Program-made: the position numbers and the translations under genes
The notes under the pieces: model-generated
Seen by the model: the letters and a program-made list of their open reading frames with translations, nothing else
The model's database searches: none
What the model was told of the DNA's origin: nothing
Assembly: GCA_016282395.1 (NCBI GenBank)
Contig: JAEEKL010000150.1
Location: 1 to 45,388 of the forward strand
Direction: 5' to 3'
Length of the DNA stretch: 45,388 nt
Origin: Bacteroidales bacterium
GTDB taxonomy: Bacteria; Bacteroidota; Bacteroidia; Bacteroidales; WCHB1-69
Shown: positions 16,109 through 44,761 of the stretch, piece after piece
Layout of the letters: the number at the start of each line of letters is the position of its first letter
Position numbering within the stretch: position 1 is the first letter of the stretch

Positions 16109-16116
16109 TATCTTTG
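16109..16116 (+). promoter_or_regulatory. -7 box TAtcTTTG at the head of the biosynthetic cluster
   Basis: Exact TAnnTTTG match 18 nt upstream of GTG 16134 and 39 nt upstream of ATG 16155. Confidence 0.5.
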
Positions 16117-16133
16117 CGCCCTTAAAAATCAGA

Positions 16134-17666
16134 GTGAAAATTTTCATTTTAATCATGCAACTATTTGATATAGAGAATATATTATTCAACGGAATGTCAT
16201 TGGTCTTCACCGATGAGGACAAAAAAAGAATGACCGAAAGCTTCCATTATCTCAAAGAGTTTTCAAAAGATAAAATCATATACGGCATCACCACAGGTTT
16301 TGGACCGATGGCACAATATCGTGTAAAAGACGAGGACATCCGCGCTTTGCAATACAACATCATCCGCAGTCACTCCTGCGGTGCCGGCGAACCATTCCCT
16401 GAATTATATGTAAAAGCGGCCATGTTGGCGCGTTTCCACACTTTTGTTAGAGGAAAGTCCGGAGTGGATCCATACGCGATGGAGCTGCTGCAAACATTCA
16501 TCAACAAAGACATCTGCCCGGTCATCCCACAACACGGGAGTGTTGGGGCCTCCGGCGACCTGGTGCAACTGGCACACATGGCACTGGCCCTCATTGGCGA
16601 AGGTGACGTATTTTACCAGGGTCAGCGCAGGCCTACCGCTGAAGTGATGGAAGAATTGGGCATTAAGCCTCTGAAACCCACGTTGCGAGAAGGGCTCGCC
16701 CTTAATAACGGCACCGCCATGATGACCGGCGTGGGCATTGTCAACCTCCACTTCGCCAAAAAACTGCTTGACTACGCCCTCATCGCCTCTGTAATCATCA
16801 ACGAAATTGCCGGATCATACGACGACTTCATGGCCAAAGAGTTGAACGACCTCAAGAACCATGAAGGGCAATCGGTCATCGCACGCAAGATGCTCGAAGT
16901 GGCCGACGGCGACCAGTGCATGCGCAAACGTACCGCCGAGATGTTCCACCATCATGAAGAAAAGGTCTTCACCCATAAGGTTCAGCCCTACTATTCGCTA
17001 CGCTGTGTTCCCCAGATTCTCGGTCCCATCTACGATGCCTACAAGTTCACGGAAAAGATTCTGATCGAGGAATTTAACGCCGTTGATGACAACCCCGTGG
17101 TCGATATGGAGACGGAAATGGTCTATCATGGCGGAAATTTCCACGGGGATTATGTCTCCTTCGAGATGGACAAGCTCAAAATCGCCACCACCAAGATTGC
17201 CGTGCTGATGGAACGCCAGCTCAACTACCTGTGCCACGACCGCATCAACGGCATATTGCCCCCGTTCCTGAACCTGGGCACCCTGGGGCTCACCTACGGC
17301 ATCCAGGCCATGCAGTTCACCGCTTGCTCCACCACGGCCGAATGCCAGGCACTGTCCAATTCCATGTACGTGCATAGCATCCCCAACAACAATGACAATC
17401 AGGATGTGGTCAGCATGGGCACCAATTCCGCTATTTTGGCCAAACGCGTCATTGACAACTGCTACCAAGTGATGGCCATCCACTACATCGCTCTGGCGCA
17501 AGCCATCGACTGTATAGAGATTCAGGGCAAACTTTCCCCGCTCACGAGAAGCATCTACGATGAAGTGCGCGCCATCGTGCCGAAATTCATCGAGGACACG
17601 CCAAAAGACATTGACATTCAAAACATTGAACATTATTTAAGAACAAAATCCACCAATCTTCTATAA
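16134..17666 (+). CDS. Aromatic amino acid ammonia-lyase, tyrosine ammonia-lyase type (FjTAL/FlxA-like)
   Basis: MIO-forming 'GASGDLVQLAHMAL'. 'YGITTGFGPMAQYR' and 'YNIIRSHSCGAG' closely resemble my recollection of Flavobacterium johnsoniae TAL. The start is GTG 16134 or ATG 16155. Confidence 0.9.
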   Translation: MKIFILIMQLFDIENILFNGMSLVFTDEDKKRMTESFHYLKEFSKDKIIYGITTGFGPMAQYRVKDEDIRALQYNIIRSHSCGAGEPFPELYVKAAMLARFHTFVRGKSGVDPYAMELLQTFINKDICPVIPQHGSVGASGDLVQLAHMALALIGEGDVFYQGQRRPTAEVMEELGIKPLKPTLREGLALNNGTAMMTGVGIVNLHFAKKLLDYALIASVIINEIAGSYDDFMAKELNDLKNHEGQSVIARKMLEVADGDQCMRKRTAEMFHHHEEKVFTHKVQPYYSLRCVPQILGPIYDAYKFTEKILIEEFNAVDDNPVVDMETEMVYHGGNFHGDYVSFEMDKLKIATTKIAVLMERQLNYLCHDRINGILPPFLNLGTLGLTYGIQAMQFTACSTTAECQALSNSMYVHSIPNNNDNQDVVSMGTNSAILAKRVIDNCYQVMAIHYIALAQAIDCIEIQGKLSPLTRSIYDEVRAIVPKFIEDTPKDIDIQNIEHYLRTKSTNLL

Positions 17667-17667
17667 T

Positions 17668-18396
17668 ATGAAATACGCTTTAGTAACGGGTGGTTCCAGG
17701 GGTATCGGCAAAGCCGTCTGCATCAAGTTAGCCTCAATGGGGCTCCCCGTCCTCATCAATTACCAGTCGAACCAGCAGGCCGCCGAGGAAACCCGGCAGA
17801 TCATCACCGGAAACGGAGGCACCGCAGAGCTGATGCCATTTGATGTGACAAAAGCTGACGAAGTTGACCAAGCCATTGAGACCTGGCAGAATGCCCATCC
17901 CGAAGATTATATCGGTGTGCTGGTCAACAATGCGGGCATCCGCAAGGACACGCTGATGGTTTTCATGCAAAACGAAGATTGGCATAGTGTCATCGACACC
18001 ACGCTGAACGGCTTCTTCTACACCACCCGGAGGCTCATAAAAGGAATGCTGTCCAAGCGTGACGGACGCATCATCAACATGGCATCCCTTTCCGGGCTCA
18101 AGGGACAGGGCGGGCAGACCAACTATTCCGCCGCCAAGGCAGCCCTGATTGGCGCCACCAAGGCACTGGCGCAGGAAATCGGTTCCCGCAAAATAACTGT
18201 CAATGCCGTAGCCCCAGGGTTTATTGAGACGGACATGACGCAAGGATTTAACGAGGCTGATTTCAAGAAGATGATACCCGCAGGACGTTTCGGAAAACCC
18301 GAAGAGGTGGCCGCATTGGTCGGTTTTCTGGCCTCCGACGATGCCGCCTACATCACTGGCGAGGTGATTTCGATTAATGGGGGGCTTTATACGTAA
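17668..18396 (+). CDS. fabG: 3-oxoacyl-ACP reductase (SDR, FabG/ApeQ-like)
   Basis: 'VTGGSRGIGKA', and 'NYSAAKAA' for the YxxxK motif. Confidence 0.9.
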   Translation: MKYALVTGGSRGIGKAVCIKLASMGLPVLINYQSNQQAAEETRQIITGNGGTAELMPFDVTKADEVDQAIETWQNAHPEDYIGVLVNNAGIRKDTLMVFMQNEDWHSVIDTTLNGFFYTTRRLIKGMLSKRDGRIINMASLSGLKGQGGQTNYSAAKAALIGATKALAQEIGSRKITVNAVAPGFIETDMTQGFNEADFKKMIPAGRFGKPEEVAALVGFLASDDAAYITGEVISINGGLYT

Positions 18397-18446
18397 AAGA
18401 GGGTAGAGTCAAAAGATATAGGAATTAAAAGCTAAAATAATAGTTC

Positions 18447-19667
18447 ATGAGACGAGTAGTTATCACAGGTATGGGTATTTATTCCTGTCTGGGCAAGAAT
18501 CTGGAAGAGGTGACCCAGTCGTTATATGCAGGCAAGTCGGGCATCGGCATTGACCCGATGCGCAAGGAGTACGGTTACCGTTCCGCCCTTACCGGCATCG
18601 TGGAGCGTCCCGTGCTGAAGGGCGTGTTGGACCGCCGGTCCAGAGTCTGTCTGGCCGAGGAAGGCGAATATGCCTACATGGCCACCGCCGAGGCCTTGCG
18701 CAAGGCAGGTGTGGAAATGGACTATCTGGAGAAGAACGAGGTGGGCGTGCTGTTCGGCAACGATTCCTCCGCTAAGGCAGTCATCGAGGCGCACACCACC
18801 GCCATGGAGTATAAAGACACCCAGATGATGGGTTCTGGTGCCATTTTCCAATCGATGAACTCCACCGTGACCATGAACTTGTCCACCATTTTCAAGTTGC
18901 GAGGCATCAACATGACCATCAGTGCGGCCTGCGCCAGCGGCTCACACGCCATCGGGTTAGGGCTCATGTTCATCCGTAACGGGCTACAAGACATGGTAAT
19001 ATGCGGCGGTGCACAGGAGACCCACTATCTCTCCATGGGTAGTTTCGACGGCATTGGAGCATTCTCCATCCGGGAGAACGAACCCACCAAGGCATCGCGC
19101 CCGTTCGACCGCGACCGCGACGGGCTTGTGCCCGGAGGCGGGGCTGCGGCGGTCATTCTGGAAGACTACGACCACGCCGTCATGAGAGGCGCACCTATCA
19201 TTGCCGAAGTGGCCGGCTATGGGTTTTCCTCCAACGGAGCAAACATCTCCCAACCCAGCGACCTGGGCTCCAGCATCGCTATGGAACGCGCCCTCAACGA
19301 TGCCGGCGTTTCCGCCCAAGACATCGACTACATCAACGCGCACGCCACCTCCACCTTGCAAGGCGACGCGTTCGAGGCCATGGCCCTCGACCATCTCTTC
19401 TCCCCTTACCGCACACCTGTCAGCTCCACAAAGTCCATGACAGGGCACGAGTGCTGGATGGCCGGCGCCAGCGAAATTGTCTATTCCAACCTCATGATGC
19501 TCAACAGCTTCATCGCCCCTAACCTCAACTTCGAGAACCCCGACGAATACTCCAAGAATTTGAACATCGTCCCCAAAACCATAGAAAAAAACATCAACCT
19601 GTATCTCTCCAACTCCTTCGGGTTCGGAGGCACCAACAGCGCATTAGTCATCAAGAAAATTTTATAA
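18447..19667 (+). CDS. Beta-ketoacyl-ACP synthase (FabB/F-type, stand-alone)
   Basis: Complete Cys-His-His set: 'SAACASGSHAIG', 'INAHATST', 'KSMTGHECWMAG'. Confidence 0.9.
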   Translation: MRRVVITGMGIYSCLGKNLEEVTQSLYAGKSGIGIDPMRKEYGYRSALTGIVERPVLKGVLDRRSRVCLAEEGEYAYMATAEALRKAGVEMDYLEKNEVGVLFGNDSSAKAVIEAHTTAMEYKDTQMMGSGAIFQSMNSTVTMNLSTIFKLRGINMTISAACASGSHAIGLGLMFIRNGLQDMVICGGAQETHYLSMGSFDGIGAFSIRENEPTKASRPFDRDRDGLVPGGGAAAVILEDYDHAVMRGAPIIAEVAGYGFSSNGANISQPSDLGSSIAMERALNDAGVSAQDIDYINAHATSTLQGDAFEAMALDHLFSPYRTPVSSTKSMTGHECWMAGASEIVYSNLMMLNSFIAPNLNFENPDEYSKNLNIVPKTIEKNINLYLSNSFGFGGTNSALVIKKIL

Positions 19668-19679
19668 TTCATATTTGAT

Positions 19680-19922
19680 ATGCAAAGAGAAGAAGTAATC
19701 AAAACTGTCAACCATTTTTTGGTAGAGGAAATAGAAATCGAAGAAGATTTGTTAAAAGAGGATGCTCTTTTGAAAGAGAATCTGGGCATCGACAGCTTGG
19801 ACTTCGTCGATATTGTGGTCATCGTGGAGAAAAATTTCGGATTCAAGATCAAGCCCGAAGAGATGAAAGAGGTGAAAACTCTTGGACAATTCTATGATTA
19901 TATCATGGGCAAAGTAAACTAA
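19680..19922 (+). CDS. Acyl carrier protein 1
   Basis: 80 aa with the phosphopantetheine site 'LGIDSLDFVDIV'. Confidence 0.9.
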   Translation: MQREEVIKTVNHFLVEEIEIEEDLLKEDALLKENLGIDSLDFVDIVVIVEKNFGFKIKPEEMKEVKTLGQFYDYIMGKVN

Positions 19923-19927
19923 AACCT

Positions 19928-20839
19928 ATGGCGGACGGCCGACAATGGCAAGGCAAGACTAAAGGCGGGAAATTCGGACAACGTTTCTTACTTTCTTTTC
20001 TGAAACGTTTCCGTGTCACGGCGTTGTACCCCTCGCTTCCATTCATCATCCCCTTCTGCCTTATCTTTGCCCGCAAGCCTAACCGGGCACTGTACCGCTA
20101 TTTTCACGACATCCACAGGTACGGCAGATGGCGTGCCCTGCGCTCCACCGCACGCAACGCATACAATTTCGGGAAAGTGGTGATTGACAAGTTCGCCATC
20201 TGGGCAGGCCGCAGCGACCAGTTCTCCGTTCGGGTGGAGCAACCGGAAATTCCTCAACGACTCTTCGAACAGGAAAAAGGAGTCTTGTTTGCGGGATCCC
20301 ACATCGGAAATTTCGAGCTGCTCGCCACCGCCTTCGAAAAAAATCCCAAGAAAATCAACGTCATCATTTACGGTGGGGAGAGCGAGATGCTCAACCAGCA
20401 AAGAACCTCCGTGTTTGGGGAGAACCATGTCAACCTCATCCCTGTCACGGCAGACATGTCGCACCTCTTCACCATCAAAAACGCTCTTGAGAACGGCGAG
20501 GTGGTGGCCATCCTGTGCGACCGCCTTTTCGGCAGCCCGAAAAAGAAAACCCTTGATTTTTTAGGGCATCCGGCTGACTTTCCCATCGGACCGTTCCGAC
20601 TGGCCGCACAAATGGACGTGCCCGTGCTTTCCGTTGCCGTGATGAAGGAGAAAGGACTGTGTTACTCTTGCCACACAACCTTGTTGAACGTGGAACCCAG
20701 CCTTACAACAAGCCAAAAATGCGACATCTTGATAGAACAATATGTGAAAAGCCTTGAAAATGTGCTCCTACAATACCCCGAGCAATGGTTCAACCTTTAT
20801 GATTTTTGGAATCTGGAAAATAATCACAACAGAAAATAA
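19928..20839 (+). CDS. LpxL/HtrB-family (lipid A late acyltransferase-like) acyltransferase
   Basis: 'FAGSHIGNFEL' (Hx4E-type motif) and 'YPEQWFNLYDFW' at the C-terminus, both typical of the family. Confidence 0.75.
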   Translation: MADGRQWQGKTKGGKFGQRFLLSFLKRFRVTALYPSLPFIIPFCLIFARKPNRALYRYFHDIHRYGRWRALRSTARNAYNFGKVVIDKFAIWAGRSDQFSVRVEQPEIPQRLFEQEKGVLFAGSHIGNFELLATAFEKNPKKINVIIYGGESEMLNQQRTSVFGENHVNLIPVTADMSHLFTIKNALENGEVVAILCDRLFGSPKKKTLDFLGHPADFPIGPFRLAAQMDVPVLSVAVMKEKGLCYSCHTTLLNVEPSLTTSQKCDILIEQYVKSLENVLLQYPEQWFNLYDFWNLENNHNRK

Positions 20840-20856
20840 CTCAAAATACAATCACT

Positions 20857-21945
20857 ATGAAATTAAAATCTCCGCAAAAGGAAATATACGCCAAAGAACA
20901 CCACTCTGCTTTACAAGCACAACGTTTAGCACAGGAGATCGCCTTTGGACCCATTGTGTTCCAAGTTTCACGACTGATGGTCAAGTTCGGCATTTTCGAG
21001 ATGTTGAACGAACACAAAGACGGCTTGACCATGACAGAAATCGCCAATGCCACAAAACTGTCGCTATACGGCACAAAAGTCCTGCTGGAATCTTCTTTGA
21101 CCATCGGCACTATCCTTCTGCATGACGATCGTTTCTTTCTCTCCAAGACCGGCTGGTTTCTGCTCAACGACGAGTCAGTACGCGTGAACATGGATTTCAA
21201 CCATGATGTGAACTATCTCGGCATGTTCCGTTTGGAGGAGTCATTGCTCAACGGCAAACCTGAAGGATTGAAAGTGTTCGGAGACTGGCCGACCGTGTAT
21301 GAAGGGTTGTCGAAACTGCCGCCGCAAGTGCAGAAAAGTTGGTTCGGCTTTGACCATTTCTATTCGGACAATTCTTTCGCGCAAGCATTGGAAATCGTGT
21401 TCAAGAATCATCCCAAGACACTGTTGGACGTTGGGGGCAACACTGGACGCTGGGCCATGCAGTGCGTGAAACACGATGCCGACGTACATGTCACCATCAT
21501 GGACCTGCCACAGCAGTTAGCCATGATGCGCGAGCAAACCAAAGGTCTGGAGGGAGCCGACAGGATCCATGGCCACGGTTGCAACCTGCTCGACCGTACC
21601 ATACCGTTCCCCACAGGGTTTGACGCCATTTGGATGAGCCAATTTTTGGATTGTTTCTCGGAGGAGGAGGTGACCAGCATTCTCACCCGTGCCGCCAAGT
21701 CCATGGACACACAGAGCAAACTGTACATCATGGAAACTTTTTGGGATCTCCAACGCTTCGAAACAGCCTCCTATTGTCTTGCTCAAACCAGCATCTATTT
21801 CACCGCCATCGCCAATGGCAACAGCAAAATGTACTATTCCGGCGACATGGCCCGCTGCGTGGAAGAGGCTGGGTTGAAAATTGATGTGCTACACGAAAAT
21901 CTGGGTGTCGGAGGGCATAGTATCATGGAATGTAGTGTTAAATAA
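20857..21945 (+). CDS. SAM-dependent O-methyltransferase (family 2-like, with an N-terminal dimerisation/wHTH region)
   Basis: SAM motif I 'LLDVGGNTGRWA', 362 aa. Confidence 0.8.
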   Translation: MKLKSPQKEIYAKEHHSALQAQRLAQEIAFGPIVFQVSRLMVKFGIFEMLNEHKDGLTMTEIANATKLSLYGTKVLLESSLTIGTILLHDDRFFLSKTGWFLLNDESVRVNMDFNHDVNYLGMFRLEESLLNGKPEGLKVFGDWPTVYEGLSKLPPQVQKSWFGFDHFYSDNSFAQALEIVFKNHPKTLLDVGGNTGRWAMQCVKHDADVHVTIMDLPQQLAMMREQTKGLEGADRIHGHGCNLLDRTIPFPTGFDAIWMSQFLDCFSEEEVTSILTRAAKSMDTQSKLYIMETFWDLQRFETASYCLAQTSIYFTAIANGNSKMYYSGDMARCVEEAGLKIDVLHENLGVGGHSIMECSVK

Positions 21946-21953
21946 TCGCCCTC

Positions 21954-22370
21954 ATGTTTCCTACACCTGCACTTCCATACATCCCTCAACGTCCACCATT
22001 TGTACTGGTTGACAATCTGTTATCTTGCAACGAGGAAGAGGTTGTGACCGACTTTCACATCCCGCCGGATCACATTTTGGTGGAAAACGGCTATTTGTCA
22101 GAAGCGGGCCTGATCGAAAACGTCGCGCAAACCTGTGCCGCCCGCATCGGATGGGTTAACCGCAACAAACCTATCCCCATTGGCGTGATTGGAGCCGTCA
22201 ACAACTTCGAACACACGACCCTCCCAGCGGCTGGCGAAACCATAACAACTACCGTCACTGTCATTTCCGCCGTTTTTGAAGCCCTCGTTGTTCATGCGGA
22301 AACCCAATGCAACGGGCAACCCGTCGCACATTGCGACATGAAGGTCTTTGTTCGGACAACTAACAGTTAA
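21954..22370 (+). CDS. Hotdog-fold dehydratase-like protein (ApeP-like)
   Basis: 'LPYIPQRPPFVLVD' N-terminus, shared with the paralogue at 27088. 138 aa. Confidence 0.7.
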   Translation: MFPTPALPYIPQRPPFVLVDNLLSCNEEEVVTDFHIPPDHILVENGYLSEAGLIENVAQTCAARIGWVNRNKPIPIGVIGAVNNFEHTTLPAAGETITTTVTVISAVFEALVVHAETQCNGQPVAHCDMKVFVRTTNS

Positions 22371-22380
22371 AACGTAAAAA

Positions 22381-22818
22381 ATGGCAGACAAAATATTGCA
22401 AGTTGAGAAAGAGGTGGATGTCCGTTTCAGCGAAGTGGATTCCATGGGGTTTGTATGGCATGGTAACTACGCCTTATATTTTGAAGATGCCAGAGAACTC
22501 TTCGGGCAGACCTATCAGCTTGAATATCTCCGCATGTACGAGTTAGGAGTTTACGCGCCGCTGGTGGAATTAAAATTCAACTACAAGAAAGCCGTACACT
22601 ACCAAAGCAGAATAAAAGTCAAATGCACCTATCGGAACACAGATTCCGCCAAAATCGTGTTCGACTACGAAATCCGCGATGCGAAAACCGATGAAATAAT
22701 GGTAACCGGCCACACCGTGCAGGTGTTCCTTGACCGCAATTACAACCTGATCTGGCAAGTACCTGATTTCTATAAAGATATAAAGAGTGGAAGAGCATCA
22801 ACGGGATTCTCTAATTAG
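22381..22818 (+). CDS. 4-hydroxybenzoyl-CoA thioesterase/YbgC-family acyl thioesterase (ApeK-like)
   Basis: 'VRFSEVDSMGFVWHGNYALYFEDAR', a hotdog thioesterase signature. Confidence 0.8.
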   Translation: MADKILQVEKEVDVRFSEVDSMGFVWHGNYALYFEDARELFGQTYQLEYLRMYELGVYAPLVELKFNYKKAVHYQSRIKVKCTYRNTDSAKIVFDYEIRDAKTDEIMVTGHTVQVFLDRNYNLIWQVPDFYKDIKSGRASTGFSN

Positions 22819-22857
22819 AGCCATACCTTCCACTTGTCGAACTTACTGCTTTTTTTG

Positions 22858-22865
22858 TATATTTG
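22858..22865 (+). promoter_or_regulatory. Internal -7 box TAtaTTTG upstream of the second ketosynthase
   Basis: Exact TAnnTTTG match in the 65-nt gap after the thioesterase gene. Confidence 0.45.
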
Positions 22866-22904
22866 CGCCTTATTCTAAAATAGGTGGTTTATACACGTAA
22901 GTAT

Positions 22905-24680: not shown

Positions 24681-24763
24681 GGAGAGGAGATGAAATAGAG
24701 ATGCGGCTAAACAATCCTGATTATGAATTAAAATCGAAAATATATTGCAAAAAATTTAAGAAT

Positions 24764-25021
24764 ATGGACGAATTGATTTTAGAACTGAAAAAAGAAATTA
24801 TCGAAGTGTTGAATCTGGAGGGAATGACCCCTGCTGACATTGACGAGAACGCACCCTTGTTCGGCGAAGGTCTCGGACTGGATTCCATCGACGCTCTGGA
24901 ACTGATAGTGCTGATGGAGAAGAACTACGGCATCAAATTGGCCAACGCCGATGAAGGCAAGGAGATCTTCAAATCCGTCAAGGTGATGGCTGAATACATC
25001 AAAGAGCATCGGACAAAATAG
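24764..25021 (+). CDS. Acyl carrier protein 2
   Basis: 'LGLDSIDALELIVLMEKNYG'. I chose ATG 24764 (MDELILELKK) to give the usual ACP length of 85 aa. Confidence 0.85.
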   Translation: MDELILELKKEIIEVLNLEGMTPADIDENAPLFGEGLGLDSIDALELIVLMEKNYGIKLANADEGKEIFKSVKVMAEYIKEHRTK

Positions 25022-25797: not shown

Positions 25798-25801
25798 CAC
25801 C

Positions 25802-28975: not shown

Positions 28976-29005
28976 TACAAATTCTTAAGAGTAGTTTTTA
29001 GCACT

Positions 29006-32720: not shown

Positions 32721-32743
32721 ACCATTGTATGTATATAAACCTC

Positions 32744-33376: not shown

Positions 33377-33385
33377 CCCATCATC

Positions 33386-37500: not shown

Positions 37501-38099
37501 TCCTTCTGGCCGACAAACTGGGACTGGACATTCTGCCCATTGTCACGCACGGCATCGGTGACATGTTTCCCAAACACGACACATGCATCCATCGAGGAAT
37601 CGTCACGATTTCCATCCAAAAACGCATACAGCCTGACAATTGTGATTTCAGGAACGGGAAAAGCACATTAGAAACCAGCAGGCTCTTCCGTCATTATTTC
37701 ATTGAAGAATATGCCGCCTTAAAAGAACAATGTGAAGATTGCGATTATCTGAAAGATATCGTTTATCACAACTACATATACAAAGGCCGGGAGGTCGAGC
37801 GTCAATGTCGCAACAAATTTCATCATATCAATACGTTATGTAATCATCTCAAAGAGCTTCCAAAAGCAGGAAAGCTTTTGTACAAGCATTGCGGCAATGG
37901 CGAATTATCCTTGATGACCGCCCTGTTAAGCAAACACATCAAGGTTACTGCGTACGATGCCGACGACAACTGCATCGCTTTGGCATCCCATTGCTTTTCG
38001 GTTCCTGAAAACCTGCACTACACTTCCGAACACCCTGACGAATCACAGTATGACTTCATCATTGACGAACAAACCATCCTTCAGTCTCCAACGAAATAA
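34536..38099 (+). CDS. Trifunctional fusion of an MMPL/RND-like exporter, a PlsC-type lysophospholipid acyltransferase and a degenerate class I methyltransferase-like domain
   Basis: 1187 aa. About 12 TM segments occupy the first ~800 aa. The acyltransferase motifs 'NHQSHFD' (around 37242) and 'FPEGTRS' (around 37443) follow. The C-terminus has 'LLYKHCGNGELS...KVTAYDADDNCIALA'. ATGA overlap with the GT2 gene. Confidence 0.85.
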   Translation: MKSFFIKTYRFFEAKPVMLWTILFVTIGLSVFSASRLHLVEDIGSFLPNSREYKSINEAYQHLGGDNKLIVSIAMTDTTAETDMDLLSSVADEVADKLSEADTTGLIKQLRYQVDDQEVTSVMAFVLENIPYFLSEADYRRMDTLITPEHISLQLAADRQLLASPIPMMRPMVQNDPLFFSSDVLQSLSDFKLDDSYQTDNDHIFNKAGTESQVIVTSNYPLSETRSNGQLIRLIDETIQEVARQHDGKVHISCFGASQVSLTNSRQIKKDSFIAIGLSLLLIITLLYYYYRNSRSILMILVSISFGALFALGLLSLIKNPVSVIAIGVASIILGIAINYPIHFLSHFKRTDDKEQILKDIVNPLLIGNITTVGAFLSLLFISSDAMKDLGLFSALLLAGTILFVLIFLPHLIGKHFQGTNRDLAFRRVAEFRFENIPGIFWVIVALTVVFYVFSSRTTFDTDMHHINYMTKEQQAAFDKLRAESDTSVHTIYAIAEGGTLDEALSRQELLLCALTRSDSVYPSAIVRYSGIGRFFPSQETQRQRLEQWNTFWEGKREVFCANLDQAARLNGFNPEAFAPCKENILRTYTIQDNSFFQPIREPLASNYVFQAEDKVIVYNILKVKKENSDNIVNFLNRTAPTGAFAFTDTSIASLLVNALSNDFNYVLYICGFIVFAFLLFSFGRVEISLMAFLPLFIAWIWILGIMGITGIRFNIVNIILATFIFGMGDDYSIFVTEGLLHERAYGRKMLAQFKNSIILSATIMFISIGMLIFAKHPAMRSLAEVTIIGMFSVVLMAYIVPPVVFKWLTTRKGKPRRQPVTLGSLFRSAIGFPYFFGGVLVMSVGGLIWLKIGKRNDANKLKYHTLLQKLLYSTARTIPKSSFTITNPFSETFEKPAVIISNHQSHFDLMYLLMLHPKIIALTNDWAWNTPLYKRIVRNADFLPASYGMDSNFPKIQQMVDKGYSVLVFPEGTRSFDQNILRFHQGAFLLADKLGLDILPIVTHGIGDMFPKHDTCIHRGIVTISIQKRIQPDNCDFRNGKSTLETSRLFRHYFIEEYAALKEQCEDCDYLKDIVYHNYIYKGREVERQCRNKFHHINTLCNHLKELPKAGKLLYKHCGNGELSLMTALLSKHIKVTAYDADDNCIALASHCFSVPENLHYTSEHPDESQYDFIIDEQTILQSPTK

Positions 38100-38108
38100 T
38101 CCAGCATC

Positions 38109-39608
38109 ATGTCCAACAACAAATACGATATCGCCATACTTGGCACTGGTTTGGGAGGGTTAGTCTGCGGCTACATCCTCAGCAAAAACGGCTACAAGGT
38201 TCTTCTGTTAGAAAAAAACGCCCAAATCGGTGGTTGTCTGCAGACGTTCAAGCGTTTCGGCGTGAAATTCGACACAGGGATGCACTATATCGGCAGCATG
38301 CTGGAAGGCCAGATTCTTCATCGGCTTTTCTCCTATTTGAAATTAGCCGAAGCGGTCCCCATTAGCCAGTTAGACAAAAACGGATATGACGTTTTTTCCA
38401 TCAATGGGCAAACCTACCGCTATGCGTCCGGCTATGAGCAGTTCACCGAGGCACTATGCGAGAGCTTCCCAAACAACAGCAAAGACATCCGACGGTACGT
38501 TCAGCAGTTGAGGGAAATCGCCAGCGCATCGCCACTATACAACCTGCGTAAAGTGGAAGACAACGTGTTCATTGAGGCGGACTATATCAAGACCAGCATC
38601 AATGACTTTATCGCCTCTATCACGGACAACACCACACTGCAAAACGTTCTGGCCGGCAACCTGCCCTTGTATGCCGGTGTCAAGGACAAAACCCCGACAT
38701 ACATTCACGCACTCATCAACAATTTCTACATACAGAGTGCGTGGCGCATCATCGGGGGCAGCGACACCATTGCCGCCGCCCTTGCCCGGCACATCCGCGA
38801 TTTTGGCGGGGAAATCCGCACCAACAGCGAAATTTGCGAGATTGTATGCAACGATGAGAAAGCCACAGGTGTGACACTGAAAAACGGAGAGCAGGTGGAG
38901 GCTGATTATTTCATCTCCAATATTCATCCTCAGGCCACCATCAACATGATTCACTCCCATCTCATCAGAAAAGTCTATCGGACCCGCATCCTCAACCTGG
39001 AGAACACCATATCCAATTTCACCGTGTATATCAAATTCAAGGAACGGGCGACACCCTACCTCAACTACAATTACTATTTCTACGAGAACGAAGATGTATG
39101 GACGGCCAACAACCGACGAAAAGGCGACCCGTTGAAAAGCTATCTTTTCATGCACCAATGTGCCGAGAACCACCAACAGTGGGCGCAAAGTGCCGAGATG
39201 ATAGGCTACATGCACTTTGACGAGGTGAGCCAATGGGCAGACACTCGCGTCGGACATAGAGGCGACGACTACACAGCCTTCAAACGAGCCACCGCCGAGC
39301 ACTATCTCGACGTGTTGGAGCAATCCTTCCCTGGCATACGGTCTGCCATCGAGGGGTATGAGACCTCCTCTCCTCTCACCTACCGCGACTACACAGCCAC
39401 CAAAGACGGCTCCATGTATGGCATTATCCGCGACAAGAGCTTCCCCACGCAAACACTCGTTTCGCAGCGTACGAAAATCCCCAACCTCTTCTTGACAGGG
39501 CAGAACATCAACTCGCACGGCATTCTGGGGGTGACCATCGGTGCCGCCCTCACCTGCGCCGAATTTCTGGGACTGAATAAAATCATCGAAGAGATTGAAA
39601 ACGAATGA
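38109..39608 (+). CDS. FAD/NAD(P)-dependent oxidoreductase, phytoene desaturase (CrtI)-family
   Basis: 'DIAILGTGLGGLVCGYILSKNGYKVLLLEKN' dinucleotide fold, 499 aa. Confidence 0.85.
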   Translation: MSNNKYDIAILGTGLGGLVCGYILSKNGYKVLLLEKNAQIGGCLQTFKRFGVKFDTGMHYIGSMLEGQILHRLFSYLKLAEAVPISQLDKNGYDVFSINGQTYRYASGYEQFTEALCESFPNNSKDIRRYVQQLREIASASPLYNLRKVEDNVFIEADYIKTSINDFIASITDNTTLQNVLAGNLPLYAGVKDKTPTYIHALINNFYIQSAWRIIGGSDTIAAALARHIRDFGGEIRTNSEICEIVCNDEKATGVTLKNGEQVEADYFISNIHPQATINMIHSHLIRKVYRTRILNLENTISNFTVYIKFKERATPYLNYNYYFYENEDVWTANNRRKGDPLKSYLFMHQCAENHQQWAQSAEMIGYMHFDEVSQWADTRVGHRGDDYTAFKRATAEHYLDVLEQSFPGIRSAIEGYETSSPLTYRDYTATKDGSMYGIIRDKSFPTQTLVSQRTKIPNLFLTGQNINSHGILGVTIGAALTCAEFLGLNKIIEEIENE

Positions 39609-39618
39609 TGTTTTTTTC

Positions 39619-39626
39619 TATCTTTG
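39619..39626 (+). promoter_or_regulatory. Internal -7 box TAtcTTTG upstream of the radical SAM gene
   Basis: Exact TAnnTTTG match in the 100-nt gap 39609-39708. Confidence 0.45.
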
Positions 39627-39670
39627 CACTTTTAAATTTTCACCTAAAACATAATCATAAATTTATCGAC

Positions 39671-39705
39671 AGCTAATAGCCAATAGCTAAAAGCAAAAAG
39701 CTGAA
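39671..39705. repeat. Degenerate heptamer tandem repeat (agctaat agccaat agctaaa agcaaaa agctgaa) abutting the radical SAM start codon
   Basis: Read directly. It ends 3 nt before ATG 39709. Confidence 0.6.
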
Positions 39706-39708
39706 AAT

Positions 39709-40998
39709 ATGAAACTGAAACTCATCTATCCAAAATGGAAAAAGTTACCTGGGCAAACAACCTTTAACCTGCCGCCACACGGCCCTGTAGTCTTTGCCGC
39801 CACCCTGCCCGAATACGTTGATGTATCTTTCACGGATGAGAACGTGGAAGAGGTGGACATGGATGAGGCGTGTGATGTGGTGGCCATCTCCATGATGCTG
39901 ACCACACAGGTGAAACGGGGCTGGGCCATCGCCGACGCATATCGTGCCAAAGGCATCCCTGTGATGTTCGGCGGCATCTCCACCATGCTGCACGCCGAGG
40001 AGACCCTACAGCACGCCGACAGTATTTTCTTAGGCGAGTCGGAAGGCCGCCAAGAGCAGGTCTTCCAAGACTTACAGAACGGTTGCCTCAAGAAAGTATA
40101 TAACTACATGGGGCACCAGCCCGACATCAATTTGGTGGGGCCGGCGCGCCGCGACCTGTACAAACGAGAGCTTTACAACCACAAGGGAGTGCAGATGGTG
40201 GATCTTTTCCACGCTTCACGAGGCTGCCGCTTCAGCTGCTACCCCTGCGCCGTGTCATACTTGGGAGGGCGCTGCTTCCGCCCCCGCCCCATCGACAAGA
40301 CCATCGCCGACTTGGAAAGCATCGACAACAACCGTCTCTTCATCGTGGACAACTCCTTGGCACAGAACAAGCAATGGGAAATGGACCTCTTCCGCGAGAT
40401 GATTCCCCTGAAGAAAAAATGGATCAGCCATACCATCGAAGACGACCCGGAAGTGCTGGATCTCGCCGCACAAGCCGGTGCATGGTACGTCTATCAGGCC
40501 GTATATGACACCTCCGACTACATCAAGGAGCGCGTGAAACGCTACCACGACTACGGCATCGGCGTGGAGGGCACCATCCTGTTCGGATTGGACAACCAGA
40601 CTGAAGACGACATCCTGCGCCTCATCGACTTCCTGCTGAAGATAGACCTCGATTTGGCCGAGTTCACCATCCTGGCACCGTTCCCGCACACCAAAGCCTA
40701 CGACGACCTCATGCGGCAGGGCCGTATCTTCGACCACGACTGGGACCATTACAACGCCGGCCAAGTGGTTTACCAACCCAAGCACATGACCCCGGAGCGC
40801 CTGCAGGAACTTTACGAATACGCCTGGAGTGCCTTCTACCACGATGAGACCCAAGAGGAGAAAATGTTCAAGCTCTTCACCAAGGTCATGCTCCGCGAGA
40901 TGGAAGACGGCACCTACCGTCCCCGCGACCGCAAACTCGCCAACAAGAGCTTCGGCAAGGACGTGGACCGTTCCAAGAGCCATTTCAACGAATTTTAG
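39709..40998 (+). CDS. B12-binding-domain radical SAM enzyme (class B)
   Basis: CX3CX2C cluster motif in 'ASRGCRFSCYPCAV', preceded by an N-terminal Rossmann-like B12-binding region ('DVVAISMMLTTQ...GIPVMFGG'). Confidence 0.85.
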   Translation: MKLKLIYPKWKKLPGQTTFNLPPHGPVVFAATLPEYVDVSFTDENVEEVDMDEACDVVAISMMLTTQVKRGWAIADAYRAKGIPVMFGGISTMLHAEETLQHADSIFLGESEGRQEQVFQDLQNGCLKKVYNYMGHQPDINLVGPARRDLYKRELYNHKGVQMVDLFHASRGCRFSCYPCAVSYLGGRCFRPRPIDKTIADLESIDNNRLFIVDNSLAQNKQWEMDLFREMIPLKKKWISHTIEDDPEVLDLAAQAGAWYVYQAVYDTSDYIKERVKRYHDYGIGVEGTILFGLDNQTEDDILRLIDFLLKIDLDLAEFTILAPFPHTKAYDDLMRQGRIFDHDWDHYNAGQVVYQPKHMTPERLQELYEYAWSAFYHDETQEEKMFKLFTKVMLREMEDGTYRPRDRKLANKSFGKDVDRSKSHFNEF

Positions 40999-41045
40999 CT
41001 GTTGGCTGTTTCAATCATATAACGTATAAAATACAAGAAACATAC

Positions 41046-41417
41046 ATGAAAGTACCCGAAAAATATTACGATGAGATTTTCCCATTTGCAGGACAATGGG
41101 ATATGCCCAGCGCATGTGGTCTGAAGATCATCCATAAAAACGGTAAAACCTATATCATCACAACAGAATTGTATCAGGAGAATCCCGGCACCTCCATCAC
41201 GTATGCGGGCGGATCGCTGATCAAACAGATTTGCGAGCAGAAAAAACTCGACATGCAATCCATCATCTACATCGAATGCAATCCGAACACCAATTCCAAA
41301 CTCTCTTTTTACGACGAAGAGATGTTTGAAGTGTCGTACGACATTGTGGATAACATGCCGACAAACCTCTCATACCGCCAGCTCAGCAAAGAAGAGATCC
41401 AAAACATTGTGGAATAA
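41046..41417 (+). CDS. Hypothetical protein (123 aa, no motif recognised)
   Basis: Clean ORF with coding-like composition, on the same strand and tightly spaced with its neighbours. Confidence 0.5.
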   Translation: MKVPEKYYDEIFPFAGQWDMPSACGLKIIHKNGKTYIITTELYQENPGTSITYAGGSLIKQICEQKKLDMQSIIYIECNPNTNSKLSFYDEEMFEVSYDIVDNMPTNLSYRQLSKEEIQNIVE

Positions 41418-41429
41418 TGCTGTGGAATA

Positions 41430-42290
41430 ATGCGAAGAATACTACACTTCCTATTCTGTCTGCTTCTGGTTTTAGCGGTCAGTGCACAGCCAAAGCCGGT
41501 CAAGTTATGGAAAGATGTGCCGGGCATGAAGTCACAGCCCACGAAACTGTATATCTATCCCGCTGACAAGAGCAACAACACCGGCACGGCTGTTGTAATC
41601 TTCCCCGGGGGAAGTTACAGTCACACTATGGGCATCGCCACCGAAGGTTTCGGTGTGGCCGAGTGGCTTAACAAACAGGGAATCAATGCTTTCGTGGTAA
41701 AATACCGCACCGGCAACCGGGGCTATCATCATCCCGCCATGATTGAGGATGCGCAGTACGCCATCCATTACGTGCGCCAACATGCCAAGGAGTACGGAAT
41801 TGACCCCAACAAAGTGGGCGCAATGGGCTTCTCCGCAGGCGGACATCTTGTCACCATGACCGGCGTTTTTTCCAAAGACAACTATCTCTCCAAATTGGGT
41901 ATCAATGACCAAACCTCCCTGAAGCCTGACTTCGTGGTGCCCGTCTATCCGGTGGTCTCCATGAAAGATGGCGTCGCACATAAACGCTCACGCAAAAACC
42001 TGCTGACCAAGCACTACACACCAGAACAACAGACCAAATTCTCCATGGAACTGAGCATTCCGCCAGACATGCCGCCCGTGTTCCTCGTAACGGCCAAGGA
42101 CGACCCGGTGGTGAAATACGAAAACAGCGTGCTGCTGGACCGCAGTCTCAGCAAGGCACGCATTCCACATAAGTTCCTACTCTATGAGACCGGCGGCCAC
42201 GGCTATGGCATGGACGAGAAACTCGCCCCTGAAGCCGGAAAATGGAAGTACGATTTCATAAAATGGCTGAAAGAGATCAAAATATTATAA
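41430..42290 (+). CDS. Secreted alpha/beta hydrolase (esterase/lipase-type)
   Basis: Signal peptide 'LLLVLAVSAQ', oxyanion 'IFPGGSY', nucleophile elbow 'GFSAGGH'. Confidence 0.8.
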   Translation: MRRILHFLFCLLLVLAVSAQPKPVKLWKDVPGMKSQPTKLYIYPADKSNNTGTAVVIFPGGSYSHTMGIATEGFGVAEWLNKQGINAFVVKYRTGNRGYHHPAMIEDAQYAIHYVRQHAKEYGIDPNKVGAMGFSAGGHLVTMTGVFSKDNYLSKLGINDQTSLKPDFVVPVYPVVSMKDGVAHKRSRKNLLTKHYTPEQQTKFSMELSIPPDMPPVFLVTAKDDPVVKYENSVLLDRSLSKARIPHKFLLYETGGHGYGMDEKLAPEAGKWKYDFIKWLKEIKIL

Positions 42291-42309
42291 TCCAATTTAC
42301 CTTTTCAAC

Positions 42310-43614
42310 ATGAACTTCATCCCTGAAATAGAATTCCAACCCAAAGCAGTCATCAAAGCTTTTCAAGAAAAAAAAATGAAGGAACAATTAGCTTATCTCA
42401 AGGCCAATTCTCCTTATTACCAGAAACTTTTCAATGATTTCAACATTGATATTGACAAATTCGAAAAACTTGAGGACTTGCAACACATCCCGTTTACAGA
42501 CAAGAAGGACTTACAGCTGCACAATTGGGATTTTCTGTGCGTCCCAAAGGAAAGAATCATCGATTTCATCACAACATCGGGCACCTTAGGCGACCCTGTG
42601 ACCTTCGCCTGCACAGACCGTGATTTGGAACGTCTTGCGTACAACGAAGCCGTATCGTTCACCTGTGCTGGACTGACTTCCAGCAGCGTGCTACAGCTGA
42701 TGACCACCATCGACAAACGCTTCATGGCAGGACTGGCCTATTTCCTCGGTCTCAGGAAGATGGGTGCCGGTGTCATTCGCGTGGGCAATGGCATCCCCGA
42801 ACTGCAATGGGACACCATTGAGCGCATCAAACCCGACACGGTAATGTGCATCCCCTCATTTATCCTCCGCCTTATCGAATACGCGGAAGAGAACGGCATT
42901 GAGTACCGGAAGTCATCCATCCGACGGATTATCGGTATTGGCGAGGGTCTTCGCGACCAAAACTTCGAGCTGAACTCATTAGGCCGGAAGATCAAAGAAA
43001 AATGGGATGTGGACCTGTTCGCCACTTATTCCTCCACGGAGATGTCAGCCACCTTTTCGGAATGCGAATACGGCTGTGGCGGCCACCACCATCCGGAGCT
43101 TTTGATTGTGGAGATAATCGGCGAGGATGACAAGCCCGTGCCTGAGGGCGAAGTGGGCGAGGTGGTCATCACCACCTTGGGCGTGGAAGGAATGCCCCTG
43201 CTCCGCTTCCGCACCGGTGATATGGCTTGCATACATCCGGAACCTTGCCGATGCGGAAGACAGACATTCCGCATCAGTCCCATTGTAGGCCGCAAGAACC
43301 ACATGATCAAGTACAAGGGCACCACCCTCTACCCGCCCGCCATGACCGAGGTGCTGACCAACGCAAATTACGTGGAGAACTACTACATCACAATCGGCAC
43401 CAACGAGACCACCGAAACCGATGATGTCACCATCACCATAGGATTGCGGCAAGAGCCAGATTTCGATGTGATTAAGGATTTGAAAGACCGTTTCCGCGCC
43501 AAAATCCGTGTCGCACCGCAAATCATCATCGCCCCCGTCGAAGAGGTCCGCAAAGTGAACTTCCCCGCAATGAGCCGCAAACCCGTCACTTTCATCGACA
43601 ACCGCAAACACTAA
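42310..43614 (+). CDS. Adenylate-forming enzyme of the phenylacetate-CoA ligase (PaaK)/F390 synthetase family
   Basis: 'TTSGTLGDPV' AMP-binding core, 'YSSTEM', 'FRTGD', 434 aa. Confidence 0.8.
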   Translation: MNFIPEIEFQPKAVIKAFQEKKMKEQLAYLKANSPYYQKLFNDFNIDIDKFEKLEDLQHIPFTDKKDLQLHNWDFLCVPKERIIDFITTSGTLGDPVTFACTDRDLERLAYNEAVSFTCAGLTSSSVLQLMTTIDKRFMAGLAYFLGLRKMGAGVIRVGNGIPELQWDTIERIKPDTVMCIPSFILRLIEYAEENGIEYRKSSIRRIIGIGEGLRDQNFELNSLGRKIKEKWDVDLFATYSSTEMSATFSECEYGCGGHHHPELLIVEIIGEDDKPVPEGEVGEVVITTLGVEGMPLLRFRTGDMACIHPEPCRCGRQTFRISPIVGRKNHMIKYKGTTLYPPAMTEVLTNANYVENYYITIGTNETTETDDVTITIGLRQEPDFDVIKDLKDRFRAKIRVAPQIIIAPVEEVRKVNFPAMSRKPVTFIDNRKH

Positions 43615-43625
43615 ACCACACAGCA

Positions 43626-44735
43626 ATGTTCGAAGAAACCCGCCCCTATTACGACCATGAGATTCCCGCTGCCATTGCGCGAGTTGGCGCGAACCCTTTT
43701 TTCCCTTCCATTGTGAAATATCTGTTTCCCGAAGCGGACATTAATACATTCAAAGAGAATTTTTCCAAAATCAAAACCATTGATGAATTCCAAACCAATG
43801 TGATGCTGAAAGCCATCTGGCGCATTGTGCATAAAAGTTGTACAACGTTCACCTGGGAAGGATTTGACCGATTGGACGACCACCATCGCTACATGTTCAT
43901 CGCCAATCACCGGGATATTCTGCTGGATGCAGCACTCCTGCAAATTGTCTTGAATGCAAATCATATCCAAACATCGGAAATCACCTTTGGAAACAACCTG
44001 ATGCAAGGCGACCTCGTCATTGACATAGGCAAAATGAACAAGATGTTCCGGATTGTACGGGGCGGCACCGTGCATGATTTCTACCGCAATTCCATGGAAG
44101 TGTCCTCTTACATGCGCTACGCTTTGCTGGAAAAAAGGGAATCAGTGTGGATTGCCCAACGCAACGGACGCACCAAGGACGGGAATGACCAGACAGAAAG
44201 CGCAGTACTGAAGATGTTTTCCATCAGCAGTCCAAAACCGTTTGTGGAGAATCTCAGTGAGCTTAACATAACACCAGTGGTCATTTCATACGAGTATGAA
44301 CCCTGCGACTTCATGAAGACGCAGGAGTTATACATTTCCAAATACCAACAATACATCAAGGAACCGGGTGAGGACCTGCGAAGCATATTGCAAGGCATCA
44401 CCCAATTCAAAGGCCATGTACATCTTGCGGTAACCCCCACCATCACCAAAGAGGAGCTCTACGAATGCGACAAACAAGAAAAAAACATGAAATTTTCCAG
44501 TCTTGCCGCCATCATCGACCAGCGCATTCACAATCATTACAAAATATGGAACAACAACTACATAGCTTATGATATATTAAACAACACGCAGCGATATTCG
44601 AAACGCTACACCTCTGATGAAAAGGAGACGTTTATAAGCTATATGGAAAACGGACTTAAAGGCCTCCGCGGTGAGGCCGACGAGCTTCAGAACCTGTTTC
44701 TGAAGATTTACGCCGGTCCTGTCCGGGAGCAATAA
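43626..44735 (+). CDS. Glycerolipid/lysophospholipid acyltransferase-family protein
   Basis: 'FIANHRDILLDAALL' (an HXnD-type motif) and 'WIAQRNGRTKDG', 369 aa. Confidence 0.7.
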   Translation: MFEETRPYYDHEIPAAIARVGANPFFPSIVKYLFPEADINTFKENFSKIKTIDEFQTNVMLKAIWRIVHKSCTTFTWEGFDRLDDHHRYMFIANHRDILLDAALLQIVLNANHIQTSEITFGNNLMQGDLVIDIGKMNKMFRIVRGGTVHDFYRNSMEVSSYMRYALLEKRESVWIAQRNGRTKDGNDQTESAVLKMFSISSPKPFVENLSELNITPVVISYEYEPCDFMKTQELYISKYQQYIKEPGEDLRSILQGITQFKGHVHLAVTPTITKEELYECDKQEKNMKFSSLAAIIDQRIHNHYKIWNNNYIAYDILNNTQRYSKRYTSDEKETFISYMENGLKGLRGEADELQNLFLKIYAGPVREQ

Positions 44736-44736
44736 C

Positions 44737-44761
44737 ATAAAAGGCGGCCAAATTGACCGCC
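44737..44761 (-). terminator. Hairpin plus T-tract downstream of tRNA-Lys, possibly bidirectional with the end of the cluster
   Basis: The minus strand reads ggcggtcaatttggccgcc followed by ttttat. The stem is only 5+2 bp. Confidence 0.45.

Follow-up and report, generated by a model that had tools for sequence, protein, structure and literature searches.

Organization of the gene cluster

The stretch analysed here (the window; 45,388 nucleotides (nt), positions 1 to 45,388 on the forward strand of contig JAEEKL010000150.1, Bacteroidales bacterium assembly GCA_016282395.1) carries a 28-gene cluster that is, with good confidence, a functional, chromosomal, flexirubin-family aryl-polyene type II polyketide synthase (PKS) cluster of an uncultured member of the Bacteroidales. 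Its 28 open reading frames (ORFs), numbered g1 to g28, follow one another without interruption on the plus strand from 16134 to 44735, with intergenic gaps of −13 to +100 nt, 22 of the 27 being no longer than 30 nt. A reading of the DNA made before any homology search (the sequence-only reading) had described this single-strand arrangement and several of its junctions, and the ORF list bears out both: stop and start codons overlap as ATGA at 27088 and 34536 and as TAATG at 33754, and the overlaps at 27929 and 32367 measure 8 and 13 nt. A further ATGA lies at 24677, between g9 and g10. The parts that it had listed are likewise all present, namely a tyrosine ammonia-lyase (TAL) with a GASGD motif, three ketosynthases (KSs) with a Cys-His-His triad, two acyl carrier proteins (ACPs), a FabG-type ketoreductase (KR), four hotdog proteins, a thioesterase, and proteins of the LolA, family 2 glycosyltransferase (GT2) and MMPL types.

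The 28 products were searched against Pfam and NCBIfam models, with the curated NCBIfam equivalog cutoffs as thresholds. We assign the cluster to the flexirubin family because five products (FlxA, FlxB, FlxJ, LolA2, and FlxY) exceed their equivalog cutoffs and because the gene order is collinear with flxA–flxY of Chitinophaga pinensis and with Fjoh_1075–1109 of Flavobacterium johnsoniae. The architecture common to aryl-polyene (Ape) and flexirubin clusters that had been recognized from the sequence is thus supported by the equivalogs, by matches to Ape structures, and by a gene order like that of the two flexirubin producers. Four start sites need comment. The ATG codons at 16155 (g1) and 22905 (g9) are likelier starts than the ORF starts at 16134 and 22884, g19 starts at the ATG at 32729 in place of the longest-ORF start at 32465, and the start of g13 at 27088 is backed by its ortholog in a related metagenome-assembled genome (MAG; locus L007).

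Starter supply and polyketide core

The two proteins predicted to supply the aryl starter stand near the two ends of the cluster. The first, g1 (16134–17666), is a FlxA TAL that scores 803 bits against a cutoff of 700 on FlxA_rubin_TAL (NF053541), matches Pfam Lyase_aromatic, and contains GASGD as the motif of the 4-methylideneimidazol-5-one (MIO) cofactor. The other, g27 (42310–43614), is a PaaK-like 4-coumarate-CoA ligase that passes the FlxY model (NF053551; 693 against 520). FlxA and FlxY of C. pinensis have been characterized biochemically (PMC3992019).

Three proteins carry a complete ketosynthase triad. The stand-alone FlxC/ApeR-like g3 (18447–19667) has it in the motifs AACASG, AHATST, and TGHECW, and its FabB and FabF scores of 363 and 330 lie under the equivalog cutoffs of 630 and 494. 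The 598-residue g9 (22884–24680) consists of a FlxI/ApeO-like KS (NACISG, AHGTAT, and FGHTLG), whose top match in the Protein Data Bank (PDB) is ApeO (6qsp_A, 1.6e-32), fused to a small FlxL-like condensing-enzyme domain of about 190 residues. This C-terminal domain was identified solely through comparison with a locus in a distant Bacteroidia MAG (L018; GCA_025999935.1), in which an unfused KS of 371 residues and its 188-residue neighbour match the two halves of g9 at 54% and 46% identity. The 768-residue g17 (30073–32379) joins a KS to a chain-length factor (CLF), as FlxN plus FlxO or ApeO plus ApeC would, and matches Pfam ketoacyl-synt, Ketoacyl-synt_C, and Ketoacyl-synt_2. Its N-terminal KS retains Cys-His-His (TACSSA, AHGTGT, and TGHTTS) and finds ApeO (6qsp_A) at 7e-50 in the PDB search; its C-terminal half lacks the Cys, passes PF13723, and gives a weak alignment to the CLF ApeC (6qsp_B, E = 0.069), with which it has a PT.F..S.HN motif in common. 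All 120 top homologs of g17 have the fused form.

The growing chain would be carried by two ACPs, g4 (19680–19922; DSL serine) and the FlxM/DarC-like g10 (24677–25021; DSI serine; NCBIfam PRK09184, 88.7 against 70). The KR is g2 (17668–18396), a FlxB short-chain dehydrogenase/reductase of the beta-ketoacyl-ACP reductase type (406 against 340) that additionally passes one FabG model. The four hotdog proteins form two paralog pairs, one ApeI-like (g14/g20) and one ApeP-like (g7/g13), and in this respect match the heterodimeric ApeI:ApeP dehydratase (DH) of Xenorhabdus. Of the ApeI-like subunits, g14 (27544–27936) matches Pfam ApeI-like/FabA and the ApeI structure 6qsr_A (2e-4), and the FlxS-like g20 (33386–33754) is placed by Pfam, PDB, and blastp searches. 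The ApeP/FabZ-like g7 (21954–22370; FlxF-like) gives weak FabZ and ApeP matches, and its equivalents at related loci L014 and L017 carry Pfam ApeP-like. Its paralog g13 (27088–27540; blastp E = 1e-14), kept in L007 and L017, itself has no family match in Pfam or NCBIfam. A 4HBT/YbgC-type thioesterase similar to FlxH and ApeK (g8, 22381–22818) completes the core.

Modification, lipid transfer, and transport

The S-adenosylmethionine (SAM)-dependent methyltransferase g6 (20857–21945) is FlxJ (620 against 560). The sequence-only reading was right about a methyltransferase and had specified O-methylation; g6 is more likely a ring C-methyltransferase, since labelling data from C. pinensis show a methionine-derived methyl group in place of a hydrogen on an aryl ring carbon (PMC3992019).

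Several products are related to enzymes that acylate or glycosylate lipids. An LpxL-family lipid acyltransferase with a HIGNFE motif, similar to FlxE and ApeD, is encoded by g5 (19928–20839). The GT2 protein g21 (33754–34539) resembles polyprenyl-phosphate-sugar synthases (FlxT/ApeJ-like), and the small EamA/ArnE-ArnF-like membrane protein g18 (32367–32720), with four transmembrane segments, is a possible subunit of a flippase for lipid-linked sugars. Gene callers start g18 at 32373 (115 residues) in some strains and at 32367 (117 residues) in others. The last gene of the cluster, g28 (43626–44735), encodes a 369-residue acyltransferase-like protein with the motif NHRDILLD and a weak match to PF01553, a family that its ortholog in L011 (a 400-kb contig, JGI 3300037454) matches as well.

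For transport, g11 and g12 (25051–27091) provide the ATPase and the ABC-2 permease of a DarI/DarJ-like ABC transporter. The protein g22 (34536–38099) is an MMPL/RND exporter fused to a PlsC-type acyltransferase (PF01553; HQSHFD) as in FlxU and Fjoh_1078, and is also similar to ApeM, and g19 (32729–33376) is a periplasmic lipid carrier with a signal sequence (LolA2_flexi, 157 against 125). A 6-nt indel lies at the start of g19 (32720–32740) relative to L001 and L002.

The FAD oxidoreductase g23 (38109–39608) belongs to the CrtI/CrtD/RetSat family and is a FlxV homolog by Pfam, NCBIfam, and gene-table comparison. Dosage or pairing varies across this family: L012 has a doubled protein of 1002 residues (3361–6369) and L018 two tandem genes (19836–22328). 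Next to it, g24 (39709–40998) is a radical SAM enzyme with a B12-binding domain and a CxxxCxxC cluster at C173, C177, and C180, which is kept in L011; g25 (41046–41417), kept beside g24, is a soluble protein of 123 residues with no family match in Pfam or NCBIfam; and g26 (41430–42290) is a secreted esterase of the BD-FAE/alpha-beta hydrolase type (signal peptide; GFSAGG). These three genes occupy the flxW–flxX position of C. pinensis, and g28 follows flxY. The order g22–g28 is kept in L011, and g24, g25, g26, and g28 are absent from the published gene lists of C. pinensis and F. johnsoniae.

No enoyl reductase (ER) of the FabI, FabK, FabL, FabV, or medium-chain dehydrogenase/reductase type is found among the 28 products, and the ten longest antisense ORFs yield no Pfam match below E = 0.1, in agreement with the claim, made from sequence, that the cluster lacks this enzyme. 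The possibility that g23 is such an enzyme in disguise, acting on enoyl groups or on the polyene, was considered and rejected, since its homologs FlxV and Fjoh_1077 belong to clusters that make products with the full polyene intact; with the family retained in true flexirubin clusters, g23 does not contradict the logic of a pathway that operates without enoyl reduction.

BtrH-like acyltransferases and the resorcinol genes

In a classical flexirubin, the aryl polyene is esterified to a dialkylresorcinol (DAR). The genes for this second moiety are where the window departs from the family. Two tandem acyltransferases of BtrH_N plus DUF4872 architecture, g15 and g16 (27929–30049), are 56% identical to each other and DarH-like, and they score 264 and 246 bits on the NCBIfam DarH model, below its cutoff of 300. 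DarB and DarG have no NCBIfam match among the 28 products, and tblastn with the DarA candidate, DarB, and DarG of L018 gives no match in any of the six frames of the window, nor in 17 other loci, L007 and L011–L017 among them. The proposed DAR-coupling enzyme, FlxW, is an acyltransferase of the peptidase C45 type (PMC3992019), and no peptidase C45 protein occurs among the 28 products. Gene content thus supports membership of the flexirubin family and does not extend to a flexirubin in the strict sense of a resorcinol ester, as DarA, DarB, DarG, and FlxW are absent here.

The L018 locus shows what a Bacteroidia cluster with resorcinol genes looks like. It passes the models for DarB (556 against 550), DarG (145 against 70), and DarH (431 against 300), the last being a true DarH, and these dar genes directly adjoin its ABC, ACP, and KS-CLF genes. 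The set includes a DarA candidate upstream of DarB, a 301-residue protein without an NCBIfam match that is a candidate by position and size only. The g15/g16-type proteins are 30–36% identical to the DarH of L018. Ten orthologs of g15 and g16 from five loci that lack darA and darB (DarAB-less loci) score 209–266 bits on the DarH model, so that all 12 BtrH-like proteins from such loci, g15 and g16 included, fall below the cutoff. The number of tandem copies varies from 1 to 4 between lineages; four BtrH_N plus DUF4872 genes, all below the DarH cutoff, stand in tandem in L011 (10001–14199). In L012 (10554–11900) and L013 (11055–12410) the BtrH-like genes are followed by a gene for a protein of about 450 residues without a Pfam match, which has no counterpart in the window.

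In F. johnsoniae, C. pinensis, Azoarcus, and L018, darA and darB adjoin BtrH-like and ABC transporter genes. The window and seven related loci, by contrast, have BtrH-like and ABC genes and no darAB.

Relatives and functional state

The sole species-level genome match is L007, from a MAG labelled 'uncultured Bacteroidales bacterium', at ~80% nucleotide identity. The 120 best homologs of FlxA (62–94% identity) and the 120 best of g17 (49–98%) all derive from MAGs or metagenomes with the labels Bacteroidales, Paludibacteraceae, or Bacteroidia, which agrees with the Bacteroidales-type host that the sequence-only reading had deduced, and window proteins recur as exact copies on several metagenome contigs. 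The ratio of nonsynonymous to synonymous substitution rates (dN/dS) is 0.04–0.2 for 17 genes compared with L007, with dS near saturation. All 28 ORFs are intact, and the DarAB-less gene set recurs in relatives down to ~45–50% protein identity. Together, the low dN/dS, the intact ORFs, and the conserved gene set indicate a maintained pathway that is predicted to work.

The pathway is modular and is consolidated only in the lineage of the window. L014 has g1–g8 only, L016 has g1–g6 only, and one contig labelled Paludibacteraceae has FlxA alone. In L007 (16685–21044) and L017 (14565–16571) the cluster stops after the g21 equivalent and is followed by HtpG, with g22–g28 not adjacent, and L011 contains g22–g28 together with ABC and BtrH genes.

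Two differences between strains were seen. Compared with the conspecific loci L002 and L003, the window is a mosaic from 32304 to 45300, with 83–89% nucleotide identity from 32304 to about 35800 and 98–100% beyond, the break lying inside the MMPL part of g22, a pattern suggestive of exchange of the PKS/export half of the cluster between strains, by recombination or by allele replacement. Upstream, a NadA identical to that of the window (1041–1961) lies on L008 in another neighbourhood, with ribosomal protein L25, an AMP-ligase, and LytTR against a phosphoribosyltransferase and a type IX secretion system (T9SS) cargo protein in the window, which indicates strain-level rearrangement upstream of the cluster. 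The NadA-bearing contigs examined upstream show differing strain contexts and contain no dar genes.

Boundaries and transcription signals

A Bacteroidetes-type −7 promoter motif, TATCTTTG (TAnnTTTG), is located on the plus strand at 16109–16116, a position that fits a promoter upstream of g1, and a hairpin with a 12-bp stem (44739–44765) directly follows the stop codon of g28 and is the probable end of the transcription unit. Both elements, and a T9SS cargo gene in the flank, had been cited in the sequence-only reading as flank signals and do exist. Across the whole window, the TAnnTTTG motif shows no enrichment (23 observed against 21.5 expected, the level of chance). Further copies lie at 22858 (before g9), 39619 (before g24), and 44884 (before a cobalamin adenosyltransferase gene). 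Because the copies before g1, g9, and g24 fall in the largest gaps, and the g8/g9 border coincides with the module border in L014, there is a hint of up to three transcription units in the cluster. Scans for internal terminator-like sites and for sigma-70 promoters gave background levels, and both kinds of scan are ill-suited to Bacteroidetes.

The flanking genes are ordinary chromosomal ones (NadA, a T9SS-tailed protein, Adk, Dxr, LepB, DapB, a TlpA-like protein, ParB, ParA, and YidC), and the GC content of the cluster is no different from that of its flanks. Downstream and on the same strand, a PduO-type cobalamin adenosyltransferase gene (44905–45388; Pfam Cob_adeno_trans in L001 and L002) runs off the end of the window. 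It lies outside the cluster, and a functional tie to the B12-radical SAM gene g24 is doubtful, since the adenosyltransferase gene is not kept beside the module in L011.

A possible biosynthetic route

Homology to the C. pinensis enzymes at the equivalog level suggests that g1 (FlxA) would deaminate tyrosine to 4-coumarate and that g27 (FlxY) would convert this to 4-coumaroyl-CoA. Malonyl units would then be added to the starter, carried on the ACPs g4 and g10, by the stand-alone KS g3 and the fused proteins g9 and g17, each round probably comprising reduction by FlxB (g2) and dehydration by ApeI/ApeP-type pairs, in which g14 or g20 would act with g7 or g13. As no enoyl reduction is expected, the conjugated polyene would be retained. 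FlxJ (g6) would methylate the ring, and the thioesterase g8 may edit or release the chain.

The subsequent steps of anchoring and export are drawn by analogy with work on flexirubins and on the aryl-polyene lipid of Xenorhabdus. In Xenorhabdus, these parts are the lysophospholipid acyltransferase (LPLAT) ApeD, the glycosyltransferase/acyltransferase ApeJ, the RND pump ApeM, the LolA-like proteins, and also ApeL (Grammbitter 2019/2020; Johnston 2021); the window has analogues of anchoring and export parts in g5, g21 (with g18), g22, and g19. Acyl transfer to a membrane anchor might involve the BtrH-like g15 and g16, the LpxL-like g5, the PlsC domain of g22, and g28, with a sugar-lipid part contributed by the GT2 protein g21 and the ArnE/F-like g18. 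Transport to the outer membrane would be the task of the MMPL domain of g22, LolA2 (g19), and the ABC transporter g11/g12. We speculate that the duplicated KS-CLF, ACP, and DH sets may serve two different chains, as has been proposed for Xenorhabdus.

Nature of the product

A resorcinol-free aryl-polyene lipid is modestly favoured over a classical flexirubin as the predicted end product, because DarA, DarB, DarG, and FlxW are all missing and because the BtrH-like proteins form a sub-threshold DarH-like group. Taking this further, the cluster may stand for a distinct flexirubin branch in uncultured, probably anaerobic Bacteroidales, in which divergent BtrH-like acyltransferases, in one to four tandem copies, load the polyene on a non-resorcinol acceptor and in which a B12-radical SAM enzyme and a secreted esterase contribute tailoring; we put this forward tentatively, at slightly less than an even chance. 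Under the distinct-branch proposal, the BtrH-like proteins may in addition transfer a second conjugated acyl chain, the product of the second KS-CLF/ACP/DH set, and a sugar- or amino-lipid, assembled with the help of the GT2 and ArnE/F-like proteins, could serve as acceptor.

The chief competitor is a canonical flexirubin, that is, an aryl-polyene ester of a dialkylresorcinol, with darA, darB, and darG at some other place in the genome. C. pinensis keeps its dar genes at a locus separate from flx (PMC3992019), and relatives of the window have the pathway distributed between two or three loci; for these two reasons absence from the window cannot establish absence from the genome. The dar-accessory genes of the window (DarH-like, ABC, and ACP) and the existence of a Bacteroidia relative with DarB, DarG, and DarH speak for the same alternative. 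Yet BtrH-like and ABC genes without darAB, in the window and the seven related loci, are unlike every described case, all 12 BtrH-like proteins miss the DarH cutoff, and FlxW is missing from the window too, so that we regard a canonical product as rather improbable though by no means negligible. Beyond the dispersed loci, other points weigh against the explanation as proposed. The split in DarH scores has a single DarB-positive Bacteroidia locus (L018) as its positive control, the C-terminal domain of g9 finds no significant match in a PDB sequence search, and every enzymatic step derives from homology.

The remaining alternatives concern the cluster as a whole. A proteobacterial-type ape cluster of the E. 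coli CFT073/Xenorhabdus kind would share the core seen here (ApeO/ApeC-like KS-CLF, ApeI/ApeP-like DH, KR, two ACPs, thioesterase, methyltransferase, LPLAT, GT2, MMPL, and LolA) and is nevertheless very unlikely, given a starter route through TAL and FlxY at the flexirubin equivalog level, the match to LolA2_flexi, a gene order that is that of flxA–flxY, and the lack of DUF3261 (ApeN) and COG4648 (ApeG) types among the 28 products. Genes missing in comparison with the model clusters (darAB, flxW, the phosphopantetheinyl transferase (PPTase) gene flxX, and the halogenase gene) might point to a decaying, non-functional remnant; with 28 of 28 ORFs intact, a dN/dS of 0.04–0.2 against a diverged relative, and the DarAB-less set conserved down to the protein identities given above, this is highly improbable. 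That the genes belong to housekeeping type II fatty-acid synthesis, in an ordinary lipid operon, is effectively refuted, despite KS proteins that resemble FabF and FabB and the FabG model passed by g2. The KS scores lie far under the equivalog cutoffs (330 against 494, 363 against 630, and 319 against 494), and the DH scores are also below theirs, placing the condensing and dehydrating enzymes outside the FabF, FabB, and FabZ types. FabD, FabH, and FabI are absent from the cluster products, the TAL, FlxY, FlxJ, and LolA2 equivalogs are present, and the nearest structural relatives are Ape proteins.

Significance

Aryl-polyene and flexirubin clusters are among the commonest bacterial biosynthetic gene clusters (BGCs) and have been tied to protection from oxidative stress and to biofilm formation. 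Genome mining has found flexirubin-type clusters in Bacteroidia, with 268 BGCs spread over five of the six classes of Bacteroidetes, an arylpolyene BGC of Bacteroides xylanisolvens that is syntenic with the C. pinensis flexirubin cluster, aryl-polyene, resorcinol, or flexirubin-like BGCs in oral Bacteroidales, and flexirubin-like BGCs in organisms that include Prevotella. The cluster family is thus well known, and antiSMASH and PGAP would already flag the present member; what is new is its Bacteroidales-specific architecture, with a product that may be free of resorcinol. No more than a few aerobic Bacteroidota, together with Xenorhabdus and E. coli, have had their end products defined chemically, and in the literature on Bacteroidales we found no paper that defines the product chemically, as the sequence-only reading had supposed.

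The version in the window retains the machinery for a tyrosine-primed polyene and is without the resorcinol branch, whether that branch was lost or was never there, and it has gained acyltransferase, radical SAM, and esterase genes of its own. Should the cluster turn out to make a new membrane lipid, this would be relevant to the way in which anaerobic Bacteroidales withstand oxygen or radicals of host origin, and a truly distinct branch would give this order an outer-membrane pigment or antioxidant lipid of a new class. Enzymologists working on type II PKSs could make use of the natural KS-CLF fusions.

Comparison with known systems

Among the closest described systems are the flexirubin loci of C. 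pinensis, flxA–flxY and the dar cluster (Schoner et al. 2014, PMC3992019; MIBiG BGC0000839). Judged, as for F. johnsoniae, against published gene tables and not sequences, the order is nearly the same, flxA-B-C-D-E being followed by F, H, I, L, M, N, O, Q, S, T, U, V, and Y. The likeness reaches the NCBIfam equivalog level for FlxA, FlxB, FlxJ, and FlxY, and a dar-type ACP, an ABC transporter, and BtrH-like genes are found in the window too. The window differs in lacking darA, darB, darG, darF, flxW (C45 acyltransferase), flxX (PPTase), flxK (halogenase), flxP, flxG, and flxR, in encoding flxI plus flxL and flxN plus flxO each as one fused protein, and in having two sub-threshold DarH-like paralogs; it has the radical SAM enzyme, the 123-residue protein, and the BD-FAE esterase at the flxW–flxX site, and an extra acyltransferase after flxY.

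F. johnsoniae UW101 has the same families in one consolidated cluster (Fjoh_1075–1110) with an inverted collinear order (McBride 2009; MIBiG BGC0000838). It shares with the window the MMPL-acyltransferase fusion, the RetSat-like flavoenzyme, GT2, LolA, the ABC transporter, the BtrH-like and LpxL-like acyltransferases, and TAL, whereas DarB and DarA (Fjoh_1102/1103), a second Dar-like gene beside TAL, a halogenase, a C45 acyltransferase, and separate KS and CLF genes occur in F. johnsoniae only.

The ape clusters of Xenorhabdus doucetiae and E. coli CFT073 follow the same type II PKS logic, with KS:CLF, ApeI:ApeP, a KR, two ACPs, and no ER (Grammbitter 2019/2020; Johnston 2021), and the window contains their core features, namely ApeO:ApeC KS-CLF (fused here), ApeR KS, ApeI:ApeP DH, ApeQ KR, ApeE/F ACPs, and the ApeM transporter. 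A methyltransferase, a thioesterase, an LPLAT, a glycosyltransferase, and RND/MMPL and LolA-like export are shared as well. The Xenorhabdus aryl-polyene lipid contains no resorcinol: the polyene is esterified to N-acetylgalactosamine-phosphate-glycerol, which also bears a second conjugated acyl chain (Grammbitter 2019/2020; Johnston 2021). The ape clusters differ from the window in a starter supply without TAL or FlxY, in their unfused proteins, in the lack of BtrH-like, ABC, radical SAM, and RetSat-like genes, and in having ApeG and ApeN, no Pfam match to which (COG4648 and the LolB-like DUF3261, respectively) occurs among the 28 products.

Two further systems have resorcinol genes. The L018 locus is of the same class as the window, with a KS-CLF fusion that is 49% identical to g17 and a matching set of export genes; it differs in its unfused KS and FlxL-like protein, in its LolB2-like and second LolA genes, and in the presence of dar genes. 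Azoarcus sp. BH72, the producer of arcuflavin, a xanthomonadin–DAR hybrid (PMC3949708), differs in being proteobacterial, in having DarA and DarB, and in using a chorismate-derived hydroxybenzoate starter, yet its DAR locus joins BtrH-like, ABC transporter, ACP, and KS genes in the same way as g9–g16 do in the window.

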